A stretch of DNA of 64,000 bases from a virus (taxonomy: Duplodnaviria; Heunggongvirae; Uroviricota; Caudoviricetes), in IMG/VR virus record IMGVR_UViG_2718217859_000011, positions 23,757 through 87,756 of that record; one strand, 5' to 3'. The notes below the pieces were generated by a model, which worked only from the letters and a program-made list of their open reading frames with translations, did not search any database and was not told the DNA's origin. Of the stretch, positions 3,297 through 42,361 are shown piece by piece (the stretch's first letter is position 1; every line of letters begins with the position of its first letter). The position numbers were made by a program, and so were the translations under genes.

Positions 3297-3597
3297 ACCC
3301 CGTCTCCCGTTATCCGGAAGCTGACAACAATAAAAAAGCCACCCGTTAATTACTGATGGCTCTGATGCATAAACGTCATCATTCCCGACCGTTATGATTG
3401 ACAATGGTTATCATTTTTATATAAAAATACTCCCGATATGTGTTACATATCATTTCTCCACGGGGAATATCCCCACGCCAGCGTCAGACTCGTTTTCCCG
3501 TTCTCTTCTGTGCTGGCGTTTTTTTATCATGATGTCGGTACATTTATCTCCAGCACCAGGCTTTCAATCTCAACACCATACGCGGAATTTTTGGGCG

Positions 3598-3627
3598 TAA
3601 AAAATCCCCTCCGGTGAGGGGATTTGC
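3598..3627 (-). terminator. Strong hairpin (aatcccctc cggt gaggggatt) upstream of the lysis cassette
   Basis: 9-10 bp GC-rich stem with flanking A/T runs; lies between the moron block and the pinholin gene. Confidence 0.4.
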
Positions 3628-3856
3628 TTATGTAAACATTTACACTGCTTACCTGCATGGTGCCGGGTGCCTCCCGGTGAATTCAGTATCAGCACCTGAA
3701 TCCGCAATTATCCCATATACCTACTTGCTGATTGCCCCTCCGCACAGGGGGATTCACCATGCGAAATTTTTTTAACAAATGCTCAGTCTGACAGGCAACT
3801 GTCAACTGACTGAATTGTGAGACAATTAAAATTTTCTGGGCGTAACTGATACCCGG

Positions 3857-4021
3857 TTAACTACCTGGCATGTCCTTTTTCACCAAAGGAAAAAGCACCA
3901 CCACAATACCGACCACCAGCACTCCATCCGCCAGCACCGACATGATCCTGCTGGTGAAATCCACCATCACCACCAGAAACAGCAGGAGTGCCACAGCGGC
4001 CAGACGCAGTTTTACCGTCAC
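3857..4021 (-). CDS. Small hydrophobic peptide (54 aa, GTG start overlapping the TerB-like stop)
   Basis: Reverse-strand frame VTVKLRLAAVALLLFLVVMVDF...VVVLFPLVKKDMPGS; GTGA start/stop overlap with the upstream gene; below the 60-aa ORF-track cutoff. Confidence 0.35.
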   Translation of the reverse strand: MTVKLRLAAVALLLFLVVMVDFTSRIMSVLADGVLVVGIVVVLFPLVKKDMPGS

Positions 4022-4449
4022 AGGTGGTTCTCCAGTCGCAGGCCAAGAACACCAGCAATCTCTTCCAGAACCTTACGCTCTTCCGGCTCAATTTCACCAT
4101 CTGCTTCAGCAATGGCCACCGCCACATCCAGCACATCTTCCGCTTCACGCGTATCGTGTTTCACATCTTCAATTTCACGCAACGCTGCACGACGACCAAT
4201 TTTAAAATTGGTGTCAAGCTGACCTGTGATCGTGGCACTGATGGCATTAATTTCTGACGTAAATGCGGACAATGCTGGCTGGTTACGTAATACCTGTTCG
4301 ATCTTCGCTTTCTCTGAAGTCTCACATTCACCATCTGCATAGGCCACCAGGTAGGCAGCATTAATAACCGCCTGTGCCAGATCGCGTTTCTCAAACTTTT
4401 TAATTTCAGTTGCTGCTCTGCGGGTTTTCTTTTTGAAAATACCAAACAT
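4018..4449 (-). CDS. TerB-like (tellurite-resistance TerB family) protein
   Basis: 143 aa with paired ADGExxxxE-type motifs (LVAYADGECETSEKAKIEQV, IAEADGEIEPEERKVLEEI); AAAGGAAA RBS. Confidence 0.55.
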   Translation of the reverse strand: MFGIFKKKTRRAATEIKKFEKRDLAQAVINAAYLVAYADGECETSEKAKIEQVLRNQPALSAFTSEINAISATITGQLDTNFKIGRRAALREIEDVKHDTREAEDVLDVAVAIAEADGEIEPEERKVLEEIAGVLGLRLENHL

Positions 4450-4622
4450 CGTGACTTTTCCTTTTAGTGGGTGAGCCTGCGCCCGGGGGTGACCAGCCCA
4501 CAGAGAAAGTCACACTGACCATCCAGTAAGCTCCCCCCTGAAAAGCTCTGTGGTTTTTGATATGCGCCGGGCGTGGCGCGGATACAAAAAAGGCCCGCAA
4601 AAGCGAGCCAGGAAAATAAGTA

Positions 4623-4699
4623 TGGCGCGTTGTACTGGATTCGAACCAGTGACCGATTGCTTAGAAGGCAATTGCTCTGTCCGACTGAGCTAACAACGC
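4623..4699 (-). tRNA. tRNA-Arg (anticodon UCU)
   Basis: Reverse complement GCGTTGTTAGCTCAGTCGGACAGAGCAATTGCCTTCTAAGCAATCGG...GGTTCGAATCC..ACAACGCGCCA folds as a cloverleaf; anticodon loop CTTCTAA. Confidence 0.8.
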
Positions 4700-4712
4700 A
4701 TGATGCAGATAA

Positions 4713-4793
4713 TGGACCGCCATCGAGGACTCGAACCCCGCACCAACAACCCTGTTATCGTGTCGTCTGCTCTTCCTGATGAGCTAATGGCGG
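4713..4793 (-). tRNA. tRNA-like sequence with atypical anticodon arm (possible degenerate tRNA)
   Basis: Acceptor stem CCGCCAT/ATGGCGG, D-arm and T-arm (GGTTCGAGTCC) are recognisable but no clean 5-bp stem with 7-nt anticodon loop could be folded by eye. Confidence 0.35.
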
Positions 4794-4800
4794 TATGTTA

Positions 4801-4876
4801 TGGTGGCCCTTGCTGGATTTGAACCAGCGACCTGGCGATTATGAGTCGCTCGCTCTCACCACTGAGCTAAAGGGCC
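4801..4876 (-). tRNA. tRNA with anticodon CAU (Ile2/Met type)
   Basis: Reverse complement GGCCCTTTAGCTCAGTGGTGAGAGCGAGCGACTCATAATCGCCAGGTCGCTGGTTCAAATCCAGCAAGGGCCACCA; anticodon loop CTCATAA. Confidence 0.75.
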
Positions 4877-4916
4877 GGGCGCAGGATAATAACGGTACGT
4901 AACTAATTCTGCAATA

Positions 4917-5975
4917 TCATCCGTTCTGACTGACTAAATCCTGAACTTCCCTCACCGTCTGATCAAAACGCCCGGTCTCCAGCTCAACGCCAATTGCACG
5001 ACGTCCCAGCGCCATCGCTGCTTTGACCGTCGAACCCGACCCCATGAAAAAATCTGCAACCAGAGCTCCCGGACGACTGCTGGTGGTAATTATCTGACGC
5101 AACATCTCCGCCGGTTTTTCACAGGGATGTTTGCCGAGGTAATACTGTACAGGCTTATACATCCAGACATCCGTATACGGAACAGCAGCCGATACAGAAA
5201 AATAACGCCGCAAAGATTTGTACTCCTCCAGCGGGCTGGCATATTGCCGGTTAAGTTCACTGTATGTGCTGACCAGCTGGTGGTGTGGCTTTTCCAGTTC
5301 CCCGCGTTGATGTTTTTCTGCTGCAACACGCGCAAACAACGCCTGCAGTTTTCTGTAATCATCCTCGTTCGGTAACTGCCACTGGCGGGCACCAAACCAG
5401 TGCGACACCATGTTTTTCTTTCCGGTGGCTTCCGCTATCTGTTTTGACGTTATTCCCAGTGATTCACGCGCATCACGAAAGTAAGAAATCAGCGGGGCCA
5501 TGACGTGCTGTTTTAGCTCGCGCCCCTTTGCCGCATAGCCGTCATTTTTGGGCTGGTATGGCCCCTGATAATGTTCTGCAAACAGAATGCGTTCTGTCGC
5601 CGGGAAATACGCCCGCAGGCTTTCCTTGCTGCACCCGTTCCAGCGCCCGGACGGCTTCGCCCAGATAATGTGATTCAGCACATTAAAGCGTTCACGCATC
5701 ATGATTTCGATATCAGATGCCAGGCGATGACCACAGAACAGGTAAAGACTTCCGGCGGGCTTTAATACCCGCCAGAACTGCGCCAGACACTGGTCCAGCC
5801 ATTTCAGGTAATCATCATCGCCCTTCCACTGGTTATCCCAGCCCTCGGGCTTCACTTTAAAGTATGGCGGGTCTGTGACTATCAGGTCGACAGAGTTTTC
5901 CGGTAAGGCCTGGATAAACTCCAGGCAATCAGCGTTGATTAACTCACAACTGGATATTTTTACAGTATCAACCAT
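4917..5975 (-). CDS. DNA methyltransferase (N6-adenine/N4-cytosine type; DPPY motif before the C-terminal SAM-binding FMGSGST)
   Basis: 352 aa; motif IV VTDPPY near the N-terminus and FxGxG near the C-terminus (beta-class permutation). Confidence 0.8.
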   Translation of the reverse strand: MVDTVKISSCELINADCLEFIQALPENSVDLIVTDPPYFKVKPEGWDNQWKGDDDYLKWLDQCLAQFWRVLKPAGSLYLFCGHRLASDIEIMMRERFNVLNHIIWAKPSGRWNGCSKESLRAYFPATERILFAEHYQGPYQPKNDGYAAKGRELKQHVMAPLISYFRDARESLGITSKQIAEATGKKNMVSHWFGARQWQLPNEDDYRKLQALFARVAAEKHQRGELEKPHHQLVSTYSELNRQYASPLEEYKSLRRYFSVSAAVPYTDVWMYKPVQYYLGKHPCEKPAEMLRQIITTSSRPGALVADFFMGSGSTVKAAMALGRRAIGVELETGRFDQTVREVQDLVSQNG

Positions 5976-6125
5976 AGATCAATAAGCACTTCTCTGATAG
6001 GCTCATACCGCTTTTGCGCAAAGCAGATGGGCCTGAGGTTTGCTTGTGACCCCAACGCATGAGCAGATGGCTGGCAGGTGCCGCTAACACCCACCAGCCG
6101 CCCATTACCACAAATTAAAAAGCCT

Positions 6126-6323
6126 TCACTGCGGAAGGCGTCTGTAACAACCGAACTGATAATCTGCCAGACCCGCCATAACAAGCTGGGTCAGTATTAA
6201 CTGACAGCGTTCGCGTGAAAGGTAAGTATTCTGCGCAATTTCCCCGACGGTCGCCGGTTCGGTGACACTTAATTCATTAAACACCACTCTGGCGGTTTCG
6301 GTCATATCCTGCTGTTTTAGCAT
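6126..6323 (-). CDS. Small putative DNA-binding protein (65 aa)
   Basis: ORF from MLKQQDMTETARV; HTH-like segment EIAQNTYLSRERCQLILTQL. Confidence 0.35.
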   Translation of the reverse strand: MLKQQDMTETARVVFNELSVTEPATVGEIAQNTYLSRERCQLILTQLVMAGLADYQFGCYRRLPQ

Positions 6324-6497
6324 GTCTTTTTCCCTTTTCTGGTTAACGTGACATACCAATACCTCTTGTCGAAAAAGCCAGCAAGCTGAAAGACCGGTAT
6401 TAATAACCACCAGCGCGTTTAATATACCGCACCACTTTCGGGGCATAAAAAAATGCTCAATGACGGGCAGTAAAAATTCTTTGTTACTCAGGTGATT

Positions 6498-7217
6498 TTA
6501 ACGCACCCTGACAATGTTAATTTCAAAATCATCAATATGTCCGCTATTAAGTATAACGAATTTCGTACTCCCACTTCTGTACGATTTTGATAACACAAGA
6601 CGATCATCATAGCGTGCAAGAACGTAATACCAGACATTATCATAGTGGATCGACTGATATTCCCTCTTAAACTGGGGTTTGTACCAACCGGCAATAAGAG
6701 AGAATGTCCAGAAATAAATCATGAATCCAGCCATCATGAACTCAATTCGGTGATGGCGAATAAAAGATACTTCCGAAAAGCATTTGACTGAAATAAGTTT
6801 TCTTCCTGACCTGACAAAAAGCGTAATTATAAAGACAGCAATAACACAAAAAATAAGCACATCTGGCTCAACGTACTGATGAATGACCGAAAATTCCAGA
6901 ACAGGTGGAATAAAAAGCAGCAATATTGCCAGAAAAAGTCTGATAAAACTCAAATTCTGTATATTGTTTTTTTGTTTTATGCCTAAAAAGAAAACAATAC
7001 CAACACCCCATCCAGTAAGGAATATAACGATAACGGTCACAGCATAAAACAAACTTCGGGCCACATCATCAACGCCAGCTCCGACAACCCACCATGGAAA
7101 GCCATAGTAAAAGGAAGTACCCCATCCATAGAAATAAGCGCTTCCCCATCCAAGACAGCCCATATAAGCAATAAAAAGTGAAGAGTTCCTCAGTAGAGTA
7201 CTGTCATCCATACCCAT
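6498..7217 (-). CDS. AT-rich multi-pass membrane protein (239 aa), late-operon moron
   Basis: 5-6 predicted TM segments rich in W/Y/F/G; markedly AT-rich coding sequence; lies directly downstream of the candidate late promoter. Confidence 0.55.
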   Translation of the reverse strand: MGMDDSTLLRNSSLFIAYMGCLGWGSAYFYGWGTSFYYGFPWWVVGAGVDDVARSLFYAVTVIVIFLTGWGVGIVFFLGIKQKNNIQNLSFIRLFLAILLLFIPPVLEFSVIHQYVEPDVLIFCVIAVFIITLFVRSGRKLISVKCFSEVSFIRHHRIEFMMAGFMIYFWTFSLIAGWYKPQFKREYQSIHYDNVWYYVLARYDDRLVLSKSYRSGSTKFVILNSGHIDDFEINIVRVR

Positions 7218-7351
7218 CTCTCTAACAATTTAAAAACATTGACTCACCTTACATAACAAAGGAGATTCCATGCAGTCAAGAGACTTCAGAGCAGGAGAAA
7301 CTCATTGCACAATCGCCATCACGTTTAACGTTATGCACCGCTTTTCGGGCA

Positions 7352-7373
7352 CAAAAAACCCGCTCTATGGCGG
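7352..7373 (-). terminator. Candidate early terminator of the late promoter transcript (tR'-like)
   Basis: Hairpin cccgc-tctatg-gcggg followed by T6 on the minus strand, about 50 nt downstream of the candidate promoter. Confidence 0.4.
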
Positions 7374-7422
7374 GCTGTAAAAATTCTTCTAACGTCAGGC
7401 ATAAAGCACCCATAATTAGGGC

Positions 7423-7450
7423 AAACTTACCACAGATTCGGGAAAAATCA
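7423..7450 (-). promoter_or_regulatory. Candidate late promoter (pR'-like) immediately downstream of the Q-like gene
   Basis: Minus-strand TTGATT, 16-bp spacer, TAAGTT; position relative to the Q-like gene and downstream hairpin. Confidence 0.3.
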
Positions 7451-7456
7451 ATAACA

Positions 7457-8278
7457 CTAGCACATTACCCTCTTTAACTGCCGCTCCGCCCATGCCTCTT
7501 CAATGTCAAACCGAACCACCAACGTATCGTAAAAGCGCTTCACTGATTTTTTCCATGTATCAAGTGTAATAGCACTCGTCACTTTGCATATGGCATTAAA
7601 TGCCTCTGTTGACGGCAATCTTTCATAGCCACGACCGCCACAACGCTGGCAGTCCCTGATAACCGGCATCCCCCGTTTTTCCGACTCTTCACGATGAACG
7701 GCAATACCGCGCCCACGGCAGTCTTTACAGGCAGTGGAAATCTCCCCCTTCCCTTTACATTCCGGGCAGGAAACTTTTACCACCTCCCTGACTTTTTTCC
7801 ATTCTTCCCAGTAAGACGGATACACACCTTTCGTACACTTTGCCCATACTGGCGGCTTGCCATCCGGATACTGAACCTTGTTTGTAAAAACTTCGCTTTC
7901 AATAAATCTTTCCCCATGGCAACAAGGGCACTGCTTTTTACTCGCTGCGCTGCGGGCGTAATCCTCAAAAGCGTACGAAGCCATAATGCGCATCACTACC
8001 GGTTTTATTTCTGCCGGGAGTTTTCTTAACGCCGAGACGCGATCGCACTGACTTAATGCATAATCTGCCAGTAATTCTGTTGCCCGCGCCCTGTCATTCA
8101 TACTAATGCCCATTTTCCCCAGGAACGCAGAAAATCCCATCTCAGCCCGGTTCTGTGTCATACCCTGCGCAGCCATCACATCAGTGATACTCAGCGCATC
8201 TTTTGACGTCGAAGCGGATGCATCAGTCAGGCCTGGGGATTTTGGGGAATAGTATTTCGGTAAATCTTCCAGTTTCAT
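7457..8278 (-). CDS. Late-gene antiterminator Q-like protein (Cys-rich zinc-binding)
   Basis: 273 aa with multiple CxxC pairs (CPCC, CPEC, CKDC, CQRC); sits between rusA and the late promoter/lysis region, as in lambdoid phages. Confidence 0.55.
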   Translation of the reverse strand: MKLEDLPKYYSPKSPGLTDASASTSKDALSITDVMAAQGMTQNRAEMGFSAFLGKMGISMNDRARATELLADYALSQCDRVSALRKLPAEIKPVVMRIMASYAFEDYARSAASKKQCPCCHGERFIESEVFTNKVQYPDGKPPVWAKCTKGVYPSYWEEWKKVREVVKVSCPECKGKGEISTACKDCRGRGIAVHREESEKRGMPVIRDCQRCGGRGYERLPSTEAFNAICKVTSAITLDTWKKSVKRFYDTLVVRFDIEEAWAERQLKRVMC

Positions 8279-12946: not shown

Positions 12947-12951
12947 ACTTG
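12947..12951. repeat. Target-site duplication ACTTG (left copy) of the Mu-like insertion
   Basis: Identical 5 bp at 51963-51967. Confidence 0.6.
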
Positions 12952-22129: not shown

Positions 22130-22597
22130 ATGCAGACCTTCAGTGAAACAGATCTTCGCGATGCGCAGGTACTGCTGCCCGATTCCGTACAGCAACTGAT
22201 TAGCGTGATTGGCTTCCCCGCCCTGACCCGGTTAATCCGTTCTTTTGGTGGCGTGACGTTAAGCGGTAAAACCGGCGCACACGCCGGACGCACCGGCGGT
22301 GTCCATGCCCTGTTACATGACGTGCTGACCGAAGACGAAATCAACAAATTGATCCGCTTTCTTGGCGGTGCACCGTTTTACATTCCTCGTTGCGATCATG
22401 CGTTACGTGCCCTGCGTAACACCCGTTTTATGGCTGATTTACAGCAGCATGTAAAAGACGGATGCTCACACCGGCAGGCGCTGGCACTACTCTGTCCCCG
22501 TTACGGGATTTCAGACCGGTACGCATGGCAACTGATACACCGACGACAAAAACAGACTTCGCTGAAAAGCCCCACCCAGGTGGGGCTTTTTGATTAA
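22130..22597 (+). CDS. Mor/C-family transcription activator (Mu middle/late regulator)
   Basis: 155 aa; C-terminal HTH region (CSHRQALALLCPRYGISDRYAWQLIHRRQ) typical of Mor/C. Confidence 0.6.
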   Translation: MQTFSETDLRDAQVLLPDSVQQLISVIGFPALTRLIRSFGGVTLSGKTGAHAGRTGGVHALLHDVLTEDEINKLIRFLGGAPFYIPRCDHALRALRNTRFMADLQQHVKDGCSHRQALALLCPRYGISDRYAWQLIHRRQKQTSLKSPTQVGLFD

Positions 22598-24341: not shown

Positions 24342-24548
24342 GTGAGCGTTATCAGATTTACAGAATACACAGGTTCAGGAGGTGCAGGCGCTGTCATGGT
24401 GCTCGCTGAACGCATCACCCATTTTTACCGTCAGCACGGTACACATGATGGCACTGTCATTGAACTGGATACCGGGAAAAACGTGTTCGTTCTTGAAAAT
24501 CCCGACGAAGTTCAGCGCAGGATTGAACAGGCTCAGAAGGACACTTAA
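24342..24548 (+). CDS. Hypothetical protein (68 aa)
   Basis: ORF between lysis and packaging genes. Confidence 0.35.
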   Translation: MSVIRFTEYTGSGGAGAVMVLAERITHFYRQHGTHDGTVIELDTGKNVFVLENPDEVQRRIEQAQKDT

Positions 24549-25048
24549 TGGCGTGGTCACAGGATATCAGGGACAAAGTCCGTAACGGGTACATCTTTGA
24601 CCAGCTTCCGCTGGATATCGTCGCCATGAAGTACGCCGTGCCGCACGATACCGCGCGGCGCTGGAAAACGCAGGCGATGAAGAACGGTGACGACTGGGAC
24701 AAGCTGCGGGCCGCTCACGCGCTCGCCGGTGACGGGCTGGAAAGTGTCGCCCGCACCGTGCTTATCAGTCTGGTGGTGAAGTGTCAGACGACGCTTGAAC
24801 GGCTGAACCAGAACCCGGACATCCCGCCGCAGGAGTCCGTCGAACTGCTGGCGAGTCTGTCTGACAGTCTCAGTAAGGCGGTGGCCAGCAGTAAAAAAAT
24901 CCTGCCGGAAACCGACCGGCTCGCCACGGCACTGGAAGTGGTGCAGCGGCTCGGCGCGTTCATCAAGGAGCGTCACCCGGCACAGTATGCCGCGTTCCTT
25001 GAGGTGCTCGAAGGCTTCGCTAAAGAGCTTGAGGATAATTTCAGTTAA
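24548..25048 (+). CDS. Putative terminase small subunit / DNA-binding packaging protein (Mu gp27-like)
   Basis: 166 aa, positioned upstream of the large terminase; assignment by position only. Confidence 0.35.
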   Translation: MAWSQDIRDKVRNGYIFDQLPLDIVAMKYAVPHDTARRWKTQAMKNGDDWDKLRAAHALAGDGLESVARTVLISLVVKCQTTLERLNQNPDIPPQESVELLASLSDSLSKAVASSKKILPETDRLATALEVVQRLGAFIKERHPAQYAAFLEVLEGFAKELEDNFS

Positions 25049-25094
25049 CCACAGCGGCCCGGTTTTCCGGGCCGTCTGATATTCGGGATTTGTA

Positions 25095-25835
25095 ATGCAA
25101 AAACAGATTATTGGTAACGCAACGTTGTATTGCGGTGATGTTCTTGATGTGCTGCCAGCGTTATCCGAACGTTTTGATGCCGTCATTACCGACCCGCCTT
25201 ACAGCAGTGGTGGCACACATAAATCAGACCGCAGCATAGCCCCTTCGGACAAGTATGTCGGTCACACCCGGTATGCCGAGTTCACCGGCGATAACCGCGA
25301 CCAGCGCAGCTGGGCGTTCTGGTGTTCCATGTGGATTTCTCATGCATTGCACAGGCTGAATCCCGGCGGTTATTTCATGGTGTTCAGTGACTGGCGACAA
25401 CTACCGGCGCTTACCGATGCATTTCAGGCCGGTGGTGTGCTGTGGCGTGGTCTGGTTGTCTGGGATAAAACGCAGGCTTCCCGTGCGCCACACACCGGCT
25501 ATTTCCGGCATCAGGCCGAGTATGTGGTCTGGGGCAGCAACGGAAAACTCGACAAATGCCCGCACGGTGGCCCGTTCCCTGGTGTGATTACGCAGCGTGT
25601 TGTCCCGTCTGAAAAACTGCACATGACCGCAAAGCCAGTTCAGCTGATGGCCGAGCTGGTTAAACCGCTGGCACCGGATGCGCACGTCCTCGATCCGTTT
25701 ATGGGAAGCGGCACCACCGCCATCCCTGTACTTGCCCGTGGCGGACGGTTTACCGGCATTGAAATGACTAACCAGTATTTTGATATCGCCTGCGCACGTA
25801 TCGAAAAAGCGCAGGCAGAAGCAGCGCAGGTGTGA
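25095..25835 (+). CDS. DNA methyltransferase (N6-adenine/N4-cytosine type) inserted between packaging genes
   Basis: 246 aa; motif IV ITDPPYSSGG N-terminal and motif I FMGSGTT C-terminal. Confidence 0.8.
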   Translation: MQKQIIGNATLYCGDVLDVLPALSERFDAVITDPPYSSGGTHKSDRSIAPSDKYVGHTRYAEFTGDNRDQRSWAFWCSMWISHALHRLNPGGYFMVFSDWRQLPALTDAFQAGGVLWRGLVVWDKTQASRAPHTGYFRHQAEYVVWGSNGKLDKCPHGGPFPGVITQRVVPSEKLHMTAKPVQLMAELVKPLAPDAHVLDPFMGSGTTAIPVLARGGRFTGIEMTNQYFDIACARIEKAQAEAAQV

Positions 25836-25836
25836 C

Positions 25837-27477
25837 GTGGCAAAACGTAAACTTTCCATTAAAGAGTTTCAGAGAAGCTTACAGGAGTACATCGCCAACC
25901 TCCGCCAGACCATTGAGGCTGAATGTCTGGGGTTTGATGTTAACCCGCAGGCCACACAGGCCCGCCGGGCGGCAGTCTGCGACCCGGTGACGGGCTACGA
26001 TTATTTTGTCGAAAACTATTTCCCGCACTACGTCCGCAACCCGGCAAAAAGTGAGCTGCATAAATACCTGTTCAGCCGTCTGCCACAGGTTGTGGCAAGC
26101 CCGGACCCGGAGAACGACGCCATCGCCGCGCCCCGTGGTGAAGCAAAATCCACGCTGGTGACTCAGCTGTTTACCCTGTGGACCATTATCCGGGCCATTA
26201 AACATTATCCGGTCATCATTATGGACAGTATCGACCAGGCTTATCCGATGCTGGAAGCCATCAAGGCTGAACTGGAGTTTAACCCCCGTTTAAAAAACGA
26301 TTTCCCGGAGGTGTGCGGGCAGGGTCGCGTCTGGCGTATGGGGACCATCGTCACAGCCAACAATATCAAGGTGACCGTTGCCGGTAGTGGTAAAAAGCTG
26401 CGTGGTCTGCGCCACGGCCCGTACCGTCCTGACCTGGTTATCCTCGACGATATCGAGAACGACGAGATGGTGCGTAACCCGGAGCAGCGCGACAAGCTGC
26501 ATGACTGGCTCACCAAAACCGTGATGCCACTGGGTGAGGCTGGCGGTAAAACCGATATTATTTATATCGGAACCATCCTGCATTACGACTCCGTACTGTC
26601 GCGCACGCTGAATAACCCGATGTGGAAAACGGCCCGTTTTAAGGCCGTCATTCAGTGGCCTGCCAATATGAAGTTGTGGGACGAGTGGGAAGAACTCATC
26701 CGCAACAAACAGCCGGAAGCGGCGGAGGCACTTTACCGGCAGAACGAAGCCGAGATGCTCGCCGGGTCGGTGGTGTCATGGGCGGCGCGTCCCCTGCTGG
26801 CACTGATGAAAATCCGTGTCCGTGACGGTCACGACACCTTTGATTCTGAATACCAGAACGACCCGGTCAGCGGTGAAGATGCGCTGTTTGCGGGCTGCAT
26901 TAAGTTCTGGGTTAACCGTCTTGATGAATGGGTGTTCTACGGCGCTGTTGACCCCAGTCTCGGGAAGAAAAACAAAAACCGCGACCCGTCGGCCATTCTC
27001 GTGGGGGGCTTTAACCGCTTTACCGGCATTCTGGATGTGGTTGAAGCCGATATCCGCCGACGTCTGCCAAATAAACTTATCGAAGACGTGATCAAGTATC
27101 AGCGGGAATACCACTGTCTGTGCTGGTCGTTTGAGTCCGTTCAGTTTCAGGAGTTTCTGCGTACCGTGCTGGTTGAGCGTTCGGCGGCGCTGGGCGTACC
27201 GGTTCCGGCGCTGCCGGTCATCCCTCTGGAGGATAAGGCGCTGCGTATTGAGTCCCTTCAGCCGCATATGGCCAACGGCCTGATTCGCATCAGTCCCGCA
27301 CATCAGACTCTGATTGACCAGCTGCGCCACTACCCCAAAGCCGACCATGATGACGGCCCGGACTGTCTGCACATGCTGTGGACGCTGGCAGTGTCGCGCA
27401 GCGCAAAATTTCAGATACACACCCCACGCAGCACCGGGCGTGACCGTGGCGGGCGTTTTGGTTCAGGAGGATGGTAA
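25837..27477 (+). CDS. Terminase large subunit (Mu gp28-like)
   Basis: Long ORF (frame open from 25780; likely GTG start at 25837, 2 nt after the MTase stop); precedes the portal gene. Confidence 0.65.
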   Translation: MAKRKLSIKEFQRSLQEYIANLRQTIEAECLGFDVNPQATQARRAAVCDPVTGYDYFVENYFPHYVRNPAKSELHKYLFSRLPQVVASPDPENDAIAAPRGEAKSTLVTQLFTLWTIIRAIKHYPVIIMDSIDQAYPMLEAIKAELEFNPRLKNDFPEVCGQGRVWRMGTIVTANNIKVTVAGSGKKLRGLRHGPYRPDLVILDDIENDEMVRNPEQRDKLHDWLTKTVMPLGEAGGKTDIIYIGTILHYDSVLSRTLNNPMWKTARFKAVIQWPANMKLWDEWEELIRNKQPEAAEALYRQNEAEMLAGSVVSWAARPLLALMKIRVRDGHDTFDSEYQNDPVSGEDALFAGCIKFWVNRLDEWVFYGAVDPSLGKKNKNRDPSAILVGGFNRFTGILDVVEADIRRRLPNKLIEDVIKYQREYHCLCWSFESVQFQEFLRTVLVERSAALGVPVPALPVIPLEDKALRIESLQPHMANGLIRISPAHQTLIDQLRHYPKADHDDGPDCLHMLWTLAVSRSAKFQIHTPRSTGRDRGGRFGSGGW

Positions 27478-27480
27478 TTA

Positions 27481-29076
27481 ATGGCACAGCTTGTTGATAT
27501 TTACGGACGCCCGCTGAAACGTGAGGCACTCAAAACCACGCAGTCGGTCAGAGTGGCAGAACGGCTGCGCATTTATCCCGACCACCCGTCCCGTGGTCTG
27601 AATATCAGAAAACTGCCGCGCATTCTGGAAGCTGCCGAACGCGGCTATCTTCCGGCGCAGGCGATGCTGTTTGCGGATATGGAAGAACGTGATGGCCATC
27701 TGTTCGCAGAGATGGAAAAGCGCAAAAAAGCCTTGCTGACGCTGGACTGGTCGGTGGAGCCGCCCCGCAATGCCTCGAAGGCAGAAAAGGAGCTGGCCGC
27801 CGCCGTGGATGAATGGCTGCACGGTATCCCGGACATGGAGGACATCATCCTCAACGGGATGAGTAGTGTCGGTTACGGCTTCAGCTGTCAGGAAATCAGC
27901 TGGGCGTTCGTGGATAAAACGTGGTTACCGGATGCGGTGACGCTGCGCCCGCATAACTGGTTTATTACCCTGCCGGAACACAATGACGAACTCCGCCTTG
28001 ATGACGGCAACCGTGGGGAAGATGGTAAGGACGGCTCCGCACTGTGGCCGTTCGGCTGGCTGGTTCATCGTTACAACGCCCGGTCGGGGTTCCTGGGTTC
28101 ATCCGGCCTGTTCCGCGTACTGGTCTGGCCGTATCTGTTTAAAAACTTTGCGTTGCGTGATATGGCGGAATTTCTGGAGATTTACGGCCTTCCGGCGCGC
28201 ATTGCGTACTATGCACAGGGCACCAGTGACGAAGACCGGGACAACATTCTCGAAGCCCTGGTTAATCTGGGCCATGAAGCGGTGGCAGCCCTGCCGCAGG
28301 GTAACGAAATCGAGTTCAAGGAAGCCGCGTCCGGTGGGCCGGAGGCGTTCATGTCGATGGTGGAATGGGCGGAGCGTACCACCTCAAAAGTGATTCTGGG
28401 CAGTACGCTGACCAGCCAGGCTGACGGTAAAACCTCCACCAACGCGCTGGGTAATGTGCATAACGAGGTCCGGCACGACATTCTGGCCGCCGATGCGCGC
28501 CAGCTGTCCGGCATGTTCAGCAGCCTGATACAGATGATGGCCAGCCTCAACGGCTGGCAGGATATCCCGCCACGCCGTCTGCCGCGTCTGGTGTTTGATG
28601 TGCAGCAGGAAGCCGACATTAAGGGGGTGGCGGAAGCCGTCAGTGTGCTGGTCAACAATGTGGGAATGAAGGATATCCCGGTGTCGTGGGTGCGCAAAAA
28701 AACCGGTATCCCCACCCCGAAAGACGGCGAAGAGGTACTGGTTCCGGTGGCACAGCGTCTCCCTGTGCAGGCCGGTCTCAGCCAGCTGCGTGAGCGGATG
28801 AATGTTGCCGCACTCAGTCAGCAGGACAACGGGGAGGACGACCCGGCACAGCGCGCCATCGACCGGGCAGCACTTCCGGCAGAGGCCATCGCGCAGGGAA
28901 TGAACGAACTGGTGGCCCCGCTGGTGCAGGCCATACAGGAAGGCCGGAATGCAGACGAGGTCATGAACGTACTGGCGGATGCATGGACGGAGCTGCCGGA
29001 TGACACACTGCGGCAGTTGCTGGCGCAGGCATTCTTTGTGGCGGATATCTGGGGGCGACTGAATGCCGACAGCTGA
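27481..29076 (+). CDS. Portal protein (Mu gp29/H-like)
   Basis: 531 aa; position after the terminase. Confidence 0.75.
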   Translation: MAQLVDIYGRPLKREALKTTQSVRVAERLRIYPDHPSRGLNIRKLPRILEAAERGYLPAQAMLFADMEERDGHLFAEMEKRKKALLTLDWSVEPPRNASKAEKELAAAVDEWLHGIPDMEDIILNGMSSVGYGFSCQEISWAFVDKTWLPDAVTLRPHNWFITLPEHNDELRLDDGNRGEDGKDGSALWPFGWLVHRYNARSGFLGSSGLFRVLVWPYLFKNFALRDMAEFLEIYGLPARIAYYAQGTSDEDRDNILEALVNLGHEAVAALPQGNEIEFKEAASGGPEAFMSMVEWAERTTSKVILGSTLTSQADGKTSTNALGNVHNEVRHDILAADARQLSGMFSSLIQMMASLNGWQDIPPRRLPRLVFDVQQEADIKGVAEAVSVLVNNVGMKDIPVSWVRKKTGIPTPKDGEEVLVPVAQRLPVQAGLSQLRERMNVAALSQQDNGEDDPAQRAIDRAALPAEAIAQGMNELVAPLVQAIQEGRNADEVMNVLADAWTELPDDTLRQLLAQAFFVADIWGRLNADS

Positions 29077-37251: not shown

Positions 37252-37428
37252 CCGAAGAGCAAATCATGACCATGAGCCGTCCCGAGCTGGACGGCTGGCT
37301 TGCCGCCGTTGACAGGCTGAACGGCGGCGGTTCAGGAAGAAAGGACACCTCACAGACCACCCGCCAGTCATTTAAATCCCTCAGAAAGAAACGCAGAAAA
37401 GGTAAGCAGAAAAATGGCCGGTAATTTC
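37146..37428 (+). other. -1 frame extension overlapping the chaperone 3' end (candidate programmed frameshift product)
   Basis: -1 frame open from 37146 to a stop at 37426-37428, bridging the chaperone stop and overlapping the tape-measure start. Confidence 0.3.
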
Positions 37429-39393
37429 AAAGTTGGCATGACCCTGACTGCGAAGGACGAAGCCTCGCAGGTTCTGGAAAAGGGACAAAAACAGGTTATC
37501 AAAGCCACCGAAGGTGTAACAAAGGCAACACGGAAGGCAGGCGCAGAGCAGAAGCGTACCGAGCAGGAAAGCATTAACAGCACGAAAAAGGCCGCAAAAG
37601 AGATACAGCGTGCCGCCCGTGCCCGGGAAACGCTCGGTATTCGTGCAGAACGTGAAATCCGGCGTGAAATTTATCAGACAGTTGCCAGCTATAACCGTCT
37701 GGCCCGCGCCGGTTTTGAATCTGCGCAGGAGCAGGAGCGCGCCATGCAGGCCGCCCGGGAAAAAGCCCGGGCACTCAAGCGTGAACTGGATGGCGTCACT
37801 CAGGCTCAGATGAAGATGGCGAAAACACCTGTTATCCCGGAGCCGGGGCGTTTTGCACGTGCGGCAGCATTTGGCGGGAATGCCGTGACAATAGGTGGTG
37901 GTATCGCGGCAGGTGCTGCCATTATGGCGCAGCCGGTCAAAAAGCAGATGAGCTACGAACGCCAGCTGGCAATGATGGCCAATACCGCCTTCAGTGATGG
38001 CGGACTGGAGGGGCGCAAAGCCGGTCTTGAGCAGATGAAAAGCAGCATCCGTAACGCGGTGACCTATGGTGGCGGCACAAAAGAGGATGCAGCCGAAACA
38101 CTGGATGCCCTGCTGAAAGATGGCGGTATTTCATTTGACACAGCCAGCAAGTGGCTGCCTGAACTGATGAAATACGCCACGGCTTCCGGTGCATCAGCGA
38201 CAGACCTGGCTAATGTGATGCTTAAGGGCAAAAAGACTTTTGGATTCAGGGATGAAGATATTTCCACCGTTCTGAATATGGCAATTGCAGCGGGCAAAGA
38301 AGGCAGCTTTGAACTGAGCGACATGGCCCGATGGTTATCTTCGCAACTGGGGTCAGCGTCAGCTGCGGGGATGAAAGGCAAAGATGATTTCGTCAAGATT
38401 CTGGCACTGAATGAAGCTGCTGCCATCACGGCGGGAAGCAGTGATGAGGCCGGAAATAACGTGTTTAACCTGCTGGCTAAACTGACCAGCCACGATATTG
38501 AAACAGCGGCAAAGAGCATTGATTACAACGGTAAAGGAATTGATTTTTCCGGTACGCTGGTTCAGGCGCGCGAGCATGGGCTTGATCCGATAGATGCGCT
38601 GTCCAGCCTGATAGACAAAATCGTTGCCAGCGATAAACGCTTTCAGGAGTTGCAAAAGAAACTGGCCTCCGCCCGGGATAAAGGTGAGCAGACGGCTGTT
38701 TACGATTCGATGGCAAAACTCCTTGAAGGCTTTGGTGTCGGGAAACTGGTTGCAGACCAACAGGCGTTAAAAGCGTTGCTGGCTTACCGTAACAACCCTG
38801 AATACCGCAAGAAGGTTGAAGATGCGGTTAATCAGCAGCGCACCCTGCCGGAAGGTCAGCGCGCGGGTGATGTGGATTTTAACTTCATATCCGGCCTCAA
38901 TGACTTTAAAACCGAACAGGCTAAAAACACGCTTGAATTTTCACAAATGGATGGTGTGAAAAAACTGGCTGATGCATCCGGGACTGTGGCCGATGCCATA
39001 AGCTGGGCGGGTGAAAAATTTCCGGGGCTGACCACAGCAGTGGTGACAGCTACCACAGCCATTAAAGCGATGACAGCAGCGGCCGTCACGTTTGCGGGGC
39101 TGAAACTTATTACCGGTAATCCAGTGTCCGGAGGAGCAGATAAGCCCGATGATACTGGGGATACTGCATCCAAAGTTAAAGATATCAGTGAAGTCGCTTC
39201 CGGCAATCAGGGACGTCTGGGAAAAATAATGGGCGCTGCCGGAAAAATTGCAACCATTTACGCAGGCTATGAGGCCGCAGAAGAACTTTATGGGGCTGTT
39301 GTTGGCGATACCATCAAGAACTTTACAGATAATCATGGTTTGTTTTTTGCAGACGATGGCTCCTTGTTCTTTACCCGTGAAGGAATGCTTAAA
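37414..39393 (+). pseudogene. Tail tape measure gene, 5' part (interrupted by IS66-family insertion)
   Basis: Frame continues in phase at 42093-42361 after removal of the IS and one TSD copy; last 8 codons before the stop at 39418-39420 are IS-encoded. Confidence 0.75.
39386..39393. repeat. Target-site duplication TGCTTAAA (left copy) of the IS66-family element
   Basis: Identical 8 bp at 42093-42100. Confidence 0.7.
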
Positions 39394-39423
39394 GTAAGCG
39401 ACTCGTCAGAACCGTATTGATAT

Positions 39424-40995
39424 TTACTGAGAGCTCAGATCAACTTTCCAGGGCAACAGATCGCGTACCCGGTTTGCCGGCCAGTCCTGGATATGTTCAA
39501 TGACGTAACGCAGCCACTTTTCTGGCTCCACATTGTTCAGACGGCATGTGCCGATCAGCGAGTACAACACCGCCGCATGTTCACCACCGCTGTCGGAACC
39601 CGCGAACATCCAGTTTTTCCGGCCTACGGCCACTCCCCGTAAGGCGTTCTCTGCGATGTTGTTGTCGATTTCCACCCAGCCATTACTGCAGTACACGTTC
39701 AGTGCATCCCACTGTTTCAGCAGGTATGCGAACGCTTTTGCCGTATCTGAGTGACGCGACAGTGTTTTCATCTGTTGCTGTATCCAGTCATACAGTGACT
39801 GCATCAGTGGCGCGGCTCTGGCTTTTCTTGCCGCCAGACGCTGTTCTGCTGAACAGCCCCGGACCTCTGCCTCGATGGCATACAGTTCACCGATACGCTG
39901 CAGGGCTTCCGTGGTGATGTAGGTGGGCGCTCTTGCATGCACATCGTGGATTTTTCTCCGGGCATGAGCCATACACGCGGCTTCCGTTATTCTGCCGGAT
40001 TCGTATAACGCCCGGTAACCACCGTAAGCATCGGCCTGAAGCACACCGCTGTAACCGGCCAGGTGATTTTGTGGATGGATACCTTTCCGGTCCGGACTGT
40101 ACGCGAACCAGACCGCCGGGGGCATCTGTGAACCGGCGTTACGGTCATCACGGACGTAGACCCACAGCCGGGCTGTCCGGGTTTTACCGCTGCCCGGCTC
40201 CTGGACCGGGACGGGGATATCATCAGCATGGACTTTACCGGGCATCAGCACATACTGGCGCAGGACGTCATACAGCGGCTCCAGCAGTTCAGCAACAGCA
40301 CCTGTCCAGCGCCCCAGTGTGGCACGGCTCAGCTCCACTCCCTGACGACGGTATATTTCTGACTGGCGGTATAACGGCAGATGGTCTGCATATTTCCCGG
40401 TGACAACATGGGCCAGAAGCCCCGCTCCGGCATAACTGCGTGCAATGGGTTTTGAAGGTACTGGTGCCTGCACGATATGGTCGCACCGGCAACAGGCCTG
40501 TTTCGGACGTTGTGTTTCGATAACCTTAAAGGCGCTGCTGATAAGCTCCAGTTGCTCTGACACATCACATCCCAGAGAACTGAGTTCACCACCACAGGCA
40601 GGACAGCATTCCTCTTCCGGCCGGATAACCCGGGTTTCACGGGGAAGTGAGGCCGGTAACGGTTTACGGGCTGAAGACTGGCGCAGGGCGGATGGCAGTA
40701 CCGGGTCATATTGCTCACCCAGCGTTTCCGCCATTTCTTCCTGAAGTGCGCTGATTCGCTCCTGTGCTTCCTGTATCTGCCGTTCGGTTTTTGCACGAAG
40801 TTTTTCTGAGCTTTTACCGAACTGCATACGTTGCAGTTTCGCAACCAGCGCCTTCAGCCGGTTGATTTCGGAAGCATAAGCCGCCACCCGCTGTGAGAGC
40901 AGGCGGTTGTATTCAGCCATCTGGCGGATGGTGTCCTGTTGCGTCTGCAACAGTGCCCGCAGGCGGGCGTTCTCATGAGCAAGTGAGGTGTCCAT
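39424..40995 (-). CDS. IS66-family transposase TnpC
   Basis: 523 aa; N-terminal leucine zipper, Cys-rich zinc-finger region (CPACGG...CRCDH) and DDE core. Confidence 0.85.
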
Positions 40996-41014
40996 ATCCT
41001 CACTTTACAACGGG

Positions 41015-41362
41015 TTATATGCGGATTCCAGCGCGTTCCGTTCGTTTCGGGTGCTTCCAGTTGATACCTTCAAGAAGCATGGATAACTGAGCCGGAGTAA
41101 GGTGCACCTTGCCGTCACGGGTGACTGGCCAGACGAAGCGGCCCCGCTCCAGGCGTTTGGTGAAGAGGCACAGTCCGTCACTGTCAGCCCACAACACTTT
41201 TATCTGGTCACCCCGGCGTCCGCGGAAGATGAACAGGTGTCCGGAGAACGGGTCATCCTTCAGGACGTTCTGAACTTTTGATGCCAGGCCGTTAAAGCCA
41301 TTTCGCATATCGGTGATACCTGCAACCAGCCAGATACGCGAACCTGCAGGGAGAGATATCAT
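41015..41362 (-). CDS. IS66-family TnpB (Orf2)
   Basis: 115 aa; typical size and sequence of IS66 Orf2. Confidence 0.8.
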   Translation of the reverse strand: MISLPAGSRIWLVAGITDMRNGFNGLASKVQNVLKDDPFSGHLFIFRGRRGDQIKVLWADSDGLCLFTKRLERGRFVWPVTRDGKVHLTPAQLSMLLEGINWKHPKRTERAGIRI

Positions 41363-42039
41363 CAGTGGCTGCTCCCTTTTATTTCGCGGATAAGTGTCTG
41401 TAATAACGCCGGCGTCAGTTTACCTTTAAGCCTGAGAGTTCCGGCCGGCAGAACCAGCTCACAACACAGACTGTCGGACGGTGTATTTATCTGCTCTGGT
41501 TCCTGTGCGGGGGCCGGGATTTTATTATCCGGCTCCGGCGTTAACGTCACGGGAAGCAGTGCCGGCATATTTTTTCCGGAAGGCAGCAGGCCACCTTTCC
41601 GGTATTGATGGCGCCAGTTGAAGAGCAGGTTATCGTTGATTCCGTTTTCCCGGGCGATCTGCGCCACACAGGCTCCGGGCTGCAGTGACTGCTCCACTAA
41701 GGCGATTTTAAACTCATAAGGGAAGTTGGGCCGCCGGGGACGTTTTTTTACCACGGGGGCTTCGGATATAACGGTGCTTTCAGGACGTACGACTGGTACC
41801 GTGGAAAATTGTCCGTAAAGGCAGGCATCAAGTTCCTGCTCCGACATGCCTGCGGGCAAAGGCCACGAAAGGCCAGCTCTCCGAAAGCGCACGAACATAC
41901 TACAAACTGTTGATTTTGGTACACCCAGGCGACGCCCGGCCACAACCCGGGGTAAATGTTCTTCAAAGTGAAGACGTAAAGCTTCAGTGATCCAGGTCCG
42001 GTGTTTCATACGATAGTGTCCATTAAAAATGATGGACAT
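41362..42039 (-). CDS. IS66-family accessory protein TnpA (Orf1)
   Basis: 225-aa ORF with ATGA overlap to tnpB; HTH-like N-terminal region. Confidence 0.55.
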   Translation of the reverse strand: MSIIFNGHYRMKHRTWITEALRLHFEEHLPRVVAGRRLGVPKSTVCSMFVRFRRAGLSWPLPAGMSEQELDACLYGQFSTVPVVRPESTVISEAPVVKKRPRRPNFPYEFKIALVEQSLQPGACVAQIARENGINDNLLFNWRHQYRKGGLLPSGKNMPALLPVTLTPEPDNKIPAPAQEPEQINTPSDSLCCELVLPAGTLRLKGKLTPALLQTLIREIKGSSH

Positions 42040-42092
42040 TATTTTTGTAGAGCCGGAGGAAACAGACCAGACGGTTTAAATGAGCCGGTTAC

Positions 42093-42100
42093 TGCTTAAA
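42093..42100. repeat. Target-site duplication TGCTTAAA (right copy) of the IS66-family element
   Basis: Matches 39386-39393. Confidence 0.7.
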
Positions 42101-42361
42101 CGGGATAATGAGCTGAAAGCCGCAGCTGATGCTCTGCCATCACCGGAGCAGGTGAACAAAGCCGCCGGAAACACAACGCCTGAATCAGCATCAAAGCAAC
42201 CCGGACGCATCACCCAGCCGGAATACCTCACGCACTGGGGACCACCTGCCAGCCCCATTAATTTCACCACACAACTGGTGCTCGATGGTCAGGTCGTGGC
42301 GGAGGCAGTGAACAAATACAACCTTCAGGACGGCAACAGAGGCACGGGAGGAACTTACTGA
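42093..42361 (+). pseudogene. Tail tape measure gene, 3' part
   Basis: In phase with 37414-39393 across the duplicated 8 bp; ends by overlapping the next gene. Confidence 0.7.

Follow-up and report, generated by a model that had tools for sequence, protein, structure and literature searches.

A predicted orphan beta-class DNA methyltransferase gene between the packaging genes of a Mu-like prophage, and its M.EcoGII-type counterpart in a lambdoid late region

What does a DNA methyltransferase gene do between the packaging genes of a Mu-like prophage, and whose DNA would its product modify? The question is raised by an open reading frame at 25095 to 25835 (+ strand) of the window, by which we mean the whole 64,000-nucleotide stretch of caudoviral DNA analyzed here. 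An initial annotation had read this gene as an orphan methyltransferase inserted among packaging genes, had paired it with a second methyltransferase of the same class at 4917 to 5975 in a lambdoid late region, and had offered anti-restriction self-methylation or epigenetic regulation as the likely role of both.

Both open reading frames were confirmed, and both products match PF01555 (N6_N4_Mtase; cut-off, 26.7 bits), a family that covers N6-adenine and N4-cytosine methyltransferases alike, the Mu-borne enzyme (246 amino acids) with 87.3 bits (E = 1.9e-24) and the lambdoid enzyme (352 amino acids) with 146.1 bits (E = 2e-42). The Mu-borne enzyme is also matched by phrog_67, "DNA methyltransferase" (E = 1.2e-54), and by the PADLOC model MTase_II PDLC03321 (E = 1.9e-64). 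The motif order ascribed to the pair, DPPY first and FxGxG last, is present in each, with DPPY at residue 33 and FMGSG at residue 202 in the Mu-borne enzyme and DPPY at residue 35 and FMGSG at residue 310 in the lambdoid enzyme, that is, motif IV before motif I, the order of the beta class. An AF2 model, made for the Mu-borne enzyme only (pLDDT 84.7, pTM 0.85), has the seven-stranded fold of SAM-dependent methyltransferases, and its best PDB matches in Foldseek are CcrM, M.BceJIV and M1.HpyAVI (probability 1.00, E = 1e-14 to 7e-16, TM 0.66 to 0.75); model and matches depict a small, single-domain protein, reduced to the core and without a distinct recognition domain. The gene is thus predicted to encode a real phage DNA methyltransferase, capable of methyl transfer. 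N4-cytosine enzymes of the beta class typically carry SPPY or SPPF, and DPPY favors N6-adenine. Because its catalytic motif is DPPY, not SPPY, the Mu-borne enzyme is probably an N6-adenine methyltransferase. The exact protein is already public (ANP10404.1 and others) and annotated in more than 200 assemblies; megablast of the gene region against a phage genome collection gave no match, and in the literature we found nothing on the enzyme or its close relatives, expression and methylation included. The assignment of both enzymes to one class stands insofar as both are of the beta class, but they are not close kin: they have only the catalytic and SAM-binding motifs in common, with 32% identity over 63 amino acids (E = 5e-8) confined to the surroundings of these motifs.

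The lambdoid gene (4917 to 5975, - strand) can be named more closely. Its product is identical to M.EcoGII at 303 of 349 residues (87%) over the full length, the M.EcoGII sequence being a machine-read copy from the SUPREM supplement (PMC11551740) in which a few errors are possible, and it shares 95% identity with the methylase of phage phiP27 and 87% with that of phage 1720a-02, which the authors of the M.EcoGII study named as a close relative (PMC5778455). Scores against the NCBIfam equivalogs YhdJ (PRK11524; 112.1, cut-off 292) and CcrM (NF050803; 67.7, cut-off 830) fall short. As had been proposed, the gene lies in a lambdoid late region, between Q and the tRNA, holin and lysozyme genes; its neighbors are small open reading frames, tRNAs and a TerB-family gene. 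Because the Q antiterminator is encoded upstream (7457 to 8278, - strand; PF03589, E = 7.4e-51), we place the methyltransferase in the late transcript, and two phage tRNA genes follow immediately downstream (4623 to 4876, - strand; Arg-TCT at 4623 to 4699 and a CAT anticodon at 4801 to 4876; ARAGORN and the RefSeq annotation of RM9088). Sequence comparison identifies it as an M.EcoGII orthologue and, by prediction, as a real phage DNA methyltransferase. Adenine is methylated by M.EcoGII whatever the surrounding sequence, and the lysogen does not express the enzyme (PMC5778455); reconstructed ancestors of its clade are still non-specific (PMC11551740). The statement that the target specificities of both enzymes are unknown is therefore wrong for this one: because of the 87% identity and the non-specificity retained in the clade ancestors, it most likely methylates adenine non-specifically once Q switches on the late operon. 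It is probably toxic if expressed.

The Mu-borne gene resides in a transposable prophage of 39,011 bp, including an insertion sequence (IS), at 12952 to 51962 (+ strand), which is itself inserted in the lambdoid prophage; its limits were set by blastn alignment to RM9088, where the element is missing, and comparison with the uninterrupted reference reveals a 5-bp target-site duplication, ACTTG, at 12947 to 12951 (left copy) and 51963 to 51967 (right copy). Mu-type genes in the window or in close relatives encode a MuA-like transposase, GemA, Mor, Portal_Mu and Mu F. The terminase module is not of the Mu type. Its first member, a DUF1804 protein (24548 to 25048, + strand; PF08822, E = 5.7e-53; phrog_756, "DNA binding protein"), occupies the position of a small terminase subunit, which makes it a candidate for that function on positional grounds; its equation with Mu gp27 was rejected (hhalign probability 0.1; Mu gp27 is PF11985), as was that of the TerL protein with Mu gp28, the two having no detectable similarity. 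The large-subunit gene terL (25837 to 27477, + strand; phrog_38, E = 1.2e-143; TIGR01630) has its true start at GTG 25837, as in the RefSeq annotation of the E2348/69 homologue, with an AGGTG ribosome-binding site inside the last codons of the methyltransferase gene, and a Mu-type portal gene (Portal_Mu) follows at 27481 to 29076 (+ strand; PF06074, E = 1.5e-95).

Natural empty sites bear out the description of the gene as inserted between packaging genes. A segment of 743 bp (25084 to 25826, + strand) is limited to filled prophages, and methyltransferase-less E. coli relatives have the 7 bp TGTATAC in its place, the junction being defined by exact prefix and suffix matching in comparison with L001 (OkiPb01701) and L003 (Z1324SEC0014). 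The gene is present in 34 of the 54 complete E. coli genomes that have the region and absent from about 20, and the flanks of empty-site prophages are about 99% identical to those of filled ones, DUF1804 and TerL proteins included. The cassette consists of a single open reading frame, joined without a seam to the DUF1804 gene on one side and to terL on the other: upstream of the methyltransferase ATG it contributes 11 nucleotides only, the stop codon is separated from the terL GTG by 1 nucleotide, a spacing conserved in three genera (E. coli, Yersinia and Serratia), and the terL ribosome-binding site is the same with or without it. A GC-rich hairpin that follows the stop codon of the DUF1804 gene (25052 to 25078, + strand; dG -22.3 kcal/mol, z -3.3) belongs to the junction and not to the cassette; we considered whether it could be a target for Com-type regulation of the cassette and rejected this, as it also occurs in methyltransferase-less E. 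coli prophages and in Trabulsiella. Among cross-species relatives, scanned in an alignment without Mu gp27, DUF1804 directly adjoins terL in 10 of 11 and the methyltransferase gene is absent, and one empty prophage, examined whole, has no substitute modification gene annotated.

Though inserted, the gene is an old resident, because the DUF1804-methyltransferase-terL arrangement is kept in Yersinia and Serratia, its dN/dS is about 0.05 (0.046 relative to the Yersinia allele and 0.067 relative to the Serratia allele), and its GC content (0.557) is like that of the flanks. These dN/dS values resemble those of the flanking genes and show strong purifying selection. All of this portrays the methyltransferase as an ordinary accessory gene of one Mu-like transposable phage lineage.

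The claim that neither gene adjoins a restriction endonuclease gene agreed with Pfam and PADLOC searches of the neighbors at both loci, in which nothing matched a restriction endonuclease or defence model; both methyltransferases are therefore orphans, and neither belongs to a Type II restriction-modification system with an adjoining cognate endonuclease gene. The prophage is without a com-mom module: a tblastn search of the window with Com, Mom and Gin from Mu gave nothing significant (best Com-like open reading frame, E = 0.23), and no Com-like open reading frame was found within 700 nucleotides upstream of the Mu-borne methyltransferase gene. A Mor/C-family transcription activator (22130 to 22597, + strand; PF08765, E = 1.9e-6) is encoded directly upstream of the lysis and packaging gene string, the position of gene C in Mu, and is presumed to activate late transcription. 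Four features argue for late co-expression of the methyltransferase with this string: (i) between the holins and terL the open reading frames lie close together or overlap; (ii) a crude promoter scan of the + strand from 22100 to the methyltransferase gene found no sigma-70-like site; (iii) the leader is only 11 nucleotides long; and (iv) the spacing to terL is conserved. Gene order and promoter scan together thus suggest that the gene would be expressed late only.

On this basis we consider it likely that the Mu-borne enzyme is a beta-class N6-adenine accessory methyltransferase that methylates progeny DNA late in infection against restriction. The gene would be silent in the lysogen; in lytic growth the Mor/C-family activator would turn on its transcription at the late stage only, along with that of the genes for lysis and packaging. 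After replication of the phage DNA, and shortly before its packaging by the headful, the enzyme would methylate its adenines, and the progeny DNA would arrive in the next host resistant to adenine-methylation-sensitive restriction. Orphan methyltransferases in phage late regions, often beside terminase genes, are a well-known anti-restriction device. Of the two roles first offered, anti-restriction self-methylation is the best supported, and both methyltransferases probably protect phage DNA from host restriction, while epigenetic regulation finds no support for either gene. Protection by the Mu-borne enzyme would be conditional, because about one third of close relatives are without the gene. 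The role would be analogous to that of Mom in Mu and of the Hin1523/Hia5 methylases, the analogy to Mom being partial because, of the 31 non-redundant viral clusters of the enzyme family, only 3 have Com encoded upstream. In the present strain the methyltransferase may have no current function, since an ISCro1 copy (IS66 family; 39387 to 42103, - strand; 99.85% identity with the ISCro1 annotated in RM9088) interrupts the tape-measure gene, which is uninterrupted in a relative (745 amino acids), and the prophage may no longer produce virions. The check first proposed, in which methylomes of lysogen and cured strain are compared, would probably turn out falsely negative; it is the wrong assay for both genes because such late genes are silent in lysogens (M.EcoGII, PMC5778455; Hin1523/Hia5, PMC3299994).

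How specific the Mu-borne enzyme is separates this explanation from its strongest competitor, a variant of it that differs in specificity alone, in which a non-specific or very degenerate enzyme methylates the phage DNA heavily and truly replaces Mom, in the manner of Hia5 or M.EcoGII. The lack of com-mom and the minimal core without a recognition domain are in keeping with such an enzyme, and homologues stand behind Com in three P2-like phages, which suggests that their expression is possibly toxic (PMC3091744). Moreover, adenine methylases without specificity have evolved in phages on at least two occasions (PMC3299994, PMC5778455), and the nearest characterized full-length relatives have short or degenerate targets (the M.EcoGIX type, with SAY, at about 28% identity, and M1.HpyAVI), but likeness to these degenerate-target enzymes is remote (23 to 28% identity), and Com is absent here and in most of the family. 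The putative DNA-contact central loops are nearly invariant among homologues 56 to 93% identical to the enzyme, which suggests a single target conserved in the family, possibly short or degenerate, and fits a defined target at least as well as a non-specific enzyme. We regard the non-specific enzyme as possible but not likely. It is also doubtful that, beside the Hia5 and M.EcoGII types, this large and highly conserved family makes up a third class of phage adenine methyltransferases that evolved independently and is non-specific or nearly so, serving as the Mom substitute of a mom-less enterobacterial Mu-like lineage.

That the enzyme methylates N4-cytosine instead of N6-adenine is quite unlikely. 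The breadth of PF01555 leaves room for either activity, the N4-cytosine enzymes rotifer N4CMT and M.PvuII are among the structural neighbors, and the same ambiguity was noted for the KS5 and KL3 homologues (PMC3091744). Against this, DPPY is invariant across the homologues, where N4-cytosine enzymes would be expected to show SPPY or SPPF, and the best matches in both structure and sequence are adenine enzymes.

Lysogenic conversion, in which the gene would be expressed from the prophage and its product would methylate the host chromosome for epigenetic regulation, is likewise improbable. The cassette is polymorphic among strains. Genes for lysogenic conversion are often polymorphic in this way, and they typically have a promoter and terminator of their own. 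The orphan methyltransferases Dam and CcrM do regulate bacterial genes (reviewed in PMC5778455), but those prophage enzymes of similar placement that have been characterized are not expressed in lysogens (PMC5778455, PMC3299994). Moreover, no promoter-like site was found in or upstream of the cassette, only 11 nucleotides of which precede the ATG, and the gene is co-oriented with, and tightly coupled to, the late genes.

Dam methylation controls pac cleavage in phage P1. A role in packaging, by methylation of a pac or terminase recognition site, would explain the place of the gene between the candidate small terminase gene and terL, to which it is coupled, and clusters of DNA-modification genes immediately ahead of those for terminase are known (the "ParB-Tls locus," cited in PMC6536676). 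Such a role is very unlikely, because packaging does without the methyltransferase in the roughly 20 E. coli prophages that lack the gene, their DUF1804 and TerL proteins being about 99% identical, and in 10 of 11 cross-species relatives, and because homologues are placed quite differently in other phages, where their neighbors are holin, tail sheath, integrase or primase genes.

Late methylation of progeny DNA by a probable N6-adenine methyltransferase is therefore the explanation we retain. Its importance beyond annotation is small. Hundreds of E. coli assemblies already have this very protein annotated. Yet the lambdoid gene can now be named as an M.EcoGII orthologue, and the same Mu-like prophage occurs in nature both with and without the cassette, which offers a ready-made isogenic comparison for the protective role. 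Should the Mu-borne family prove non-specific, it would supply a compact reagent of the Hia5/EcoGII kind, unusually small.

Set against known systems, the two enzymes part company. M.EcoGII, a non-specific adenine methyltransferase of both DNA and RNA from a prophage of E. coli O104:H4, resembles the lambdoid gene product in size, class and lambdoid prophage setting; the Mu-borne enzyme is no member of this group, being about 100 amino acids shorter, without the long central region, and giving two short motif-level matches only (28% over 64 amino acids, E = 2e-5). CcrM, M.BceJIV and M1.HpyAVI have the fold and motif order of the Mu-borne enzyme but only 20 to 24% identity, so that their targets (GANTC, GTWWAC and GAGG-like, respectively) are not transferable to it; CcrM has an extra C-terminal domain that the Mu-borne enzyme lacks, and scores against the NCBIfam equivalogs YhdJ (PRK11524; 40.7, cut-off 292) and CcrM (NF050803; 51.6, cut-off 830) are far below threshold. 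The best NCBIfam subfamily is that of M.EcoGIX and M.BceJIII, PRK13699-type enzymes of conjugative plasmids (NF010253; E = 2.2e-21), with a score of 76.6 bits that lies below the 244 cut-off for membership and about 28% identity to the M.EcoGIX-type plasmid genes over the full length. These are small beta-class adenine enzymes that provide anti-restriction for DNA entering a new host; they are single-strand-specific, depend on DNA polymerase I and have the degenerate motif SAY (PMC7736820), features of the plasmid enzymes that need not hold for the Mu-borne enzyme.

Similar in setting are Hin1523, Hia5 and Nma1821, adenine methyltransferases of mom-less Mu-like prophages that are silent in lysogens (PMC3299994): like the Mu-borne enzyme they are orphans in a Mu-like prophage without mom and presumably act late against restriction. 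They are, however, Dam-like enzymes of the alpha class, with DPPY near residue 194 (PMC3299994), whereas the Mu-borne enzyme has the reverse motif order of the beta class, and their genes follow Com in the place of mom, at the right end, whereas ours lies between DUF1804 and terL with no Com. The Mu-borne enzyme is therefore their functional analogue and not their homologue. ORF48 of phage B3, a Com-associated methylase of a Mu-like phage, was likewise rejected as a homologue, being an unrelated D12/Dam-class enzyme.

Relatives by descent are found in other phages. Bpm of Bordetella phage BPP-1 is 53% identical to the Mu-borne enzyme, an orphan and annotated as an adenine methylase, for which we found no experimental specificity in the literature; it differs in being an early gene (cro-bpm-primase) of a podovirus, and the timing of expression is thus not uniform across the family. 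Other homologues lie in late regions, in the order holin-methyltransferase-lysozyme in Salmonella and lysis-methyltransferase-HNH-TerS-TerL in an E. coli prophage. True homologues of similar size (45 to 54% identity) also occur among the PF01555 methylases of P2-like phages, namely, Stenotrophomonas Smp131 gp04, that of Escherichia phage Chuche and Burkholderia phage KS5 gp20, which differ from the Mu-borne gene in having a genuine Com zinc-ribbon translational regulator upstream and in lying near tail, portal or integrase genes; such P2-like phage methylases are orphan accessory genes, for which the authors presumed protection of the phage DNA (PMC3091744).

The window carries two phage-borne methyltransferases, one of 246 amino acids in the Mu-like prophage (25095-25835, + strand) and one of 352 amino acids in the lambdoid late region (4917-5975, - strand), and both open reading frames, with the motif order that the initial annotation gave them, were confirmed. 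The positions of DPPY and FMGSG are residues 33 and 202 in the Mu-borne protein and residues 35 and 310 in the lambdoid one, which is the beta-class order in both cases. No restriction-endonuclease or defense model matched any neighbor of either gene, so both are orphans, as had been proposed. Both match PF01555 (N6_N4_Mtase; E of 1.9e-24 and 87.3 bits against a cut-off of 26.7 for the Mu-borne protein, E of 2e-42 for the lambdoid one), and the former also matches PHROG 67 "DNA methyltransferase" (E of 1.2e-54) and, over its full length, the PADLOC Type II methyltransferase model (E of 1.9e-64). They are not closely related to each other: the BLASTP alignment is confined to the motif regions (32% over 63 amino acids).

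The Mu-borne gene lies between a DUF1804 gene (24548-25048; PF08822, E of 5.7e-53; PHROG "DNA binding protein") and the terminase large subunit gene terL (phrog_38, E of 1.2e-143; TIGR01630), which is followed by a Mu-type portal gene. As in the RefSeq entry for the E2348/69 homologue and in the Yersinia and Serratia gene calls, terL truly begins at GTG 25837, 1 nucleotide past the methyltransferase stop; a longer, TTG-initiated frame from 25780 is a product of mechanical ORF listing. With a 2-kb query, the region was found in 54 of 5,426 complete E. coli genomes, 34 covering the whole query and about 20 lacking roughly 740 bp. Exact junction mapping revealed that the empty prophages have 7 bp (TGTATAC) in place of 25084-25826 (743 bp), and that they share the last 9 nucleotides of the methyltransferase frame (CAGGTGTGA), which at an empty site make up the ribosome-binding region of terL; the cassette is thus almost exactly one ORF, and terL has the same translation signals with or without it. 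A stable GC-rich hairpin directly after the DUF1804 stop (25052-25078; dG of -22.3 kcal/mol, z of -3.3, no clear T-run) is kept in methyltransferase-less relatives, Trabulsiella included, and is a candidate attenuator, RNA stabilizer, or processing site.

The description of the gene as inserted is borne out by species-representative genomes of 11 other taxa, 10 of which have DUF1804 directly followed by terL and none of which has this methyltransferase within 4.5 kb; gp27 is likewise directly followed by gp28 in phage Mu, and the adjacency is therefore the ancestral state. The gene is nevertheless no recent arrival, because (i) the DUF1804-methyltransferase-TerL-portal order and the stop/1-nucleotide/GTG spacing are kept in Yersinia and Serratia, where the methyltransferase (80% and 77% identity, respectively) has diverged to a degree similar to that of the flanking genes, (ii) dN/dS is 0.046 for the Yersinia allele and 0.067 for the Serratia allele, and (iii) its GC content (0.557) matches the flanks. 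The flanks of the E. coli empty sites are about 99% identical to those of the filled ones, and the empty sites stem from either a recent loss or an exchange of alleles. No other modification gene is annotated in the one empty prophage that was inspected in full, and the methyltransferase is therefore dispensable. Between the window and the E2348/69 allele, 38 of 50 nucleotide differences fall within 25275-25455 (gene nucleotides 180 to 360, approximately amino acids 60 to 120, a helix and a strand on the surface that follow motif IV), a recombination-like mosaic patch in an otherwise 99% identical gene that raises dN/dS of this pair to 0.27. In a Klebsiella locus (L020:4995-6523) and a Salmonella locus (L011:6542-7759), the DUF1804-terL junction is occupied by 1.2 to 1.5 kb of different small ORFs (in Salmonella, one runs in reverse), and accessory cargo seems to have settled at this junction repeatedly.

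The host element spans 12952-51962 (39 kb) between the two ACTTG copies of a 5-bp duplication (outer limits, 12947-51967), and its Mu-type genes encode transposase, GemA, Mor, portal, and F. It interrupts a helix-turn-helix gene of the lambdoid prophage, making the two nested; its ends were defined against E. coli RM9088, where the same lambdoid prophage is uninterrupted (99.7 to 99.9% identity). The terminase module is not of Mu type, with DUF1804 replacing the gp27 family: no similarity was detectable between DUF1804 and Mu gp27 (PF11985), so that "small terminase" is a positional assignment, or between TerL, which is of the psiM2/T7 type, and Mu gp28, BLAST included. This module (24548-27477) is combined with Mu-type transposition, regulation, portal, and head genes, and homologues of Com, Mom, and Gin are absent from the entire window. 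A copy of ISCro1 (IS66 family; 39387-42103) breaks the 3' end of the tape-measure gene (ORF 37414-39420), which is intact (745 amino acids) in a relative; the prophage is therefore probably tail-defective, and in this strain the methyltransferase may currently serve no purpose. A 200-kb Escherichia albertii plasmid (NZ_CP043265.1) carries the same methyltransferase (91.5% amino acid identity), and two 249-kb E. coli plasmid records contain the whole 2-kb region; Mu-like elements of this lineage transpose into plasmids too.

Because the cassette brings only 11 nucleotides before the methyltransferase ATG, a consensus scan of the + strand from 22100 to the gene found no promoter-like site, and the ORFs from the holins to terL are packed or overlapping, the gene would be expected to be co-transcribed with the genes for lysis and packaging, downstream of a Mor/C-family activator (22130-22597). 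Expressed late, the enzyme would methylate phage DNA after its replication and immediately before it is packaged by the headful. Of the two roles offered by the initial annotation, anti-restriction is the best reading, and nothing speaks positively for epigenetic regulation in the lysogen. A role in packaging itself, as the position beside terL might suggest, is unlikely, since near-identical terminase genes occur in relatives without the methyltransferase. The late-methylation reading has precedents in its favor. Mu-like prophages without mom carry the lysogen-silent adenine methyltransferases Hin1523, Hia5, and Nma1821, of extremely relaxed specificity; these are Dam-like, Com-linked, and in the mom position (PMC3299994), and hence analogues rather than homologues. 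In the P2-like phages Smp131, Chuche, and KS5 (PMC3091744 for KS5), the gene immediately preceding a true homologue (45 to 54% identity) encodes a genuine Com zinc-ribbon regulator. Pairs of Com translational regulators (PF10122) and PF01555 methylases occur in P2-like phages (L028:1341-2226, L004:5778-6720, and KS5 genes 20-21), so the DNA-modification enzymes under Com control are of no fewer than three unrelated kinds (Mom, Dam-like, and beta-class). Other homologues are flanked by holin and lysozyme genes in a Salmonella Mu-like prophage or immediately precede HNH-TerS-TerL in an E. coli prophage, and across 31 non-redundant viral clusters the gene adjoins many different module boundaries, with Com upstream in only three; in BPP-1, the homologue belongs to the early genes. 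The family thus amounts to a mobile accessory cassette, for which the analogy to Mom is only partial.

The lambdoid gene is preceded by the Q antiterminator and followed by phage tRNAs and lysis genes. The order within 3081-8278 is Q, a 239-amino-acid membrane-like ORF, a 106-amino-acid ORF, the methylase, two or three tRNAs (two by ARAGORN, with a "tRNA-OTHER" placed between these by RefSeq in RM9088), a TerB-family protein, DUF3927, and holin, and stx occupies this slot in Stx phages. At least 80% of the lambdoid 2-kb region is covered at one place in about 1,750 of the 5,426 E. coli genomes. Its target was listed as unknown, which was wrong: the protein shares 87% identity with M.EcoGII along its entire length (M.EcoGII sequence machine-read from the supplement of PMC11551740), 95% with the phiP27 methylase, and 87% with that of phage 1720a-02, cited as a close relative by the M.EcoGII authors (PMC5778455). 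For M.EcoGII, adenine methylation is independent of sequence context, and the lysogen does not express the enzyme (PMC5778455); reconstructed ancestors of its clade are likewise non-specific, and the closest site-specific relative shares only about 27% identity (PMC11551740). Judged from this orthology, the specificity is effectively known, and this allele is probably non-specific too. For both methyltransferases, comparing lysogen and cured-strain methylomes would probably yield a false negative.

For the Mu-borne enzyme, a confident AlphaFold2 model from a 36-sequence alignment (pLDDT of 84.7, pTM of 0.85) shows a minimal core with no separate recognition domain. Its best PDB matches are CcrM, M.BceJIV, and M1.HpyAVI (E of 1e-14 to 7e-16; 20 to 24% identity), all beta-class adenine methyltransferases. 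Low-confidence loops (approximately residues 38 to 69 and 125 to 140) partly overlap the family's most conserved sequence, and since residues 117 to 181 are nearly invariant among homologues 56 to 93% identical overall, the whole family reads as sharing one target. From what is established about motif IV, the invariant DPPY favors N6-adenine over N4-cytosine as the target base. The family comprises more than 5,700 proteins at E of ≤1e-20, and the exact protein is already public (e.g., ANP10404.1; 213 contigs). The nearest characterized relatives, M1.HpyAVI and the M.EcoGIX-type plasmid methylases (properties described in PMC7736820), are remote, the latter with about 28% identity and an NCBIfam score far below cut-off. 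The Mu-borne enzyme is thus a new, uncharacterized member of a well-known kind, and the lambdoid enzyme is an orthologue of the known M.EcoGII.
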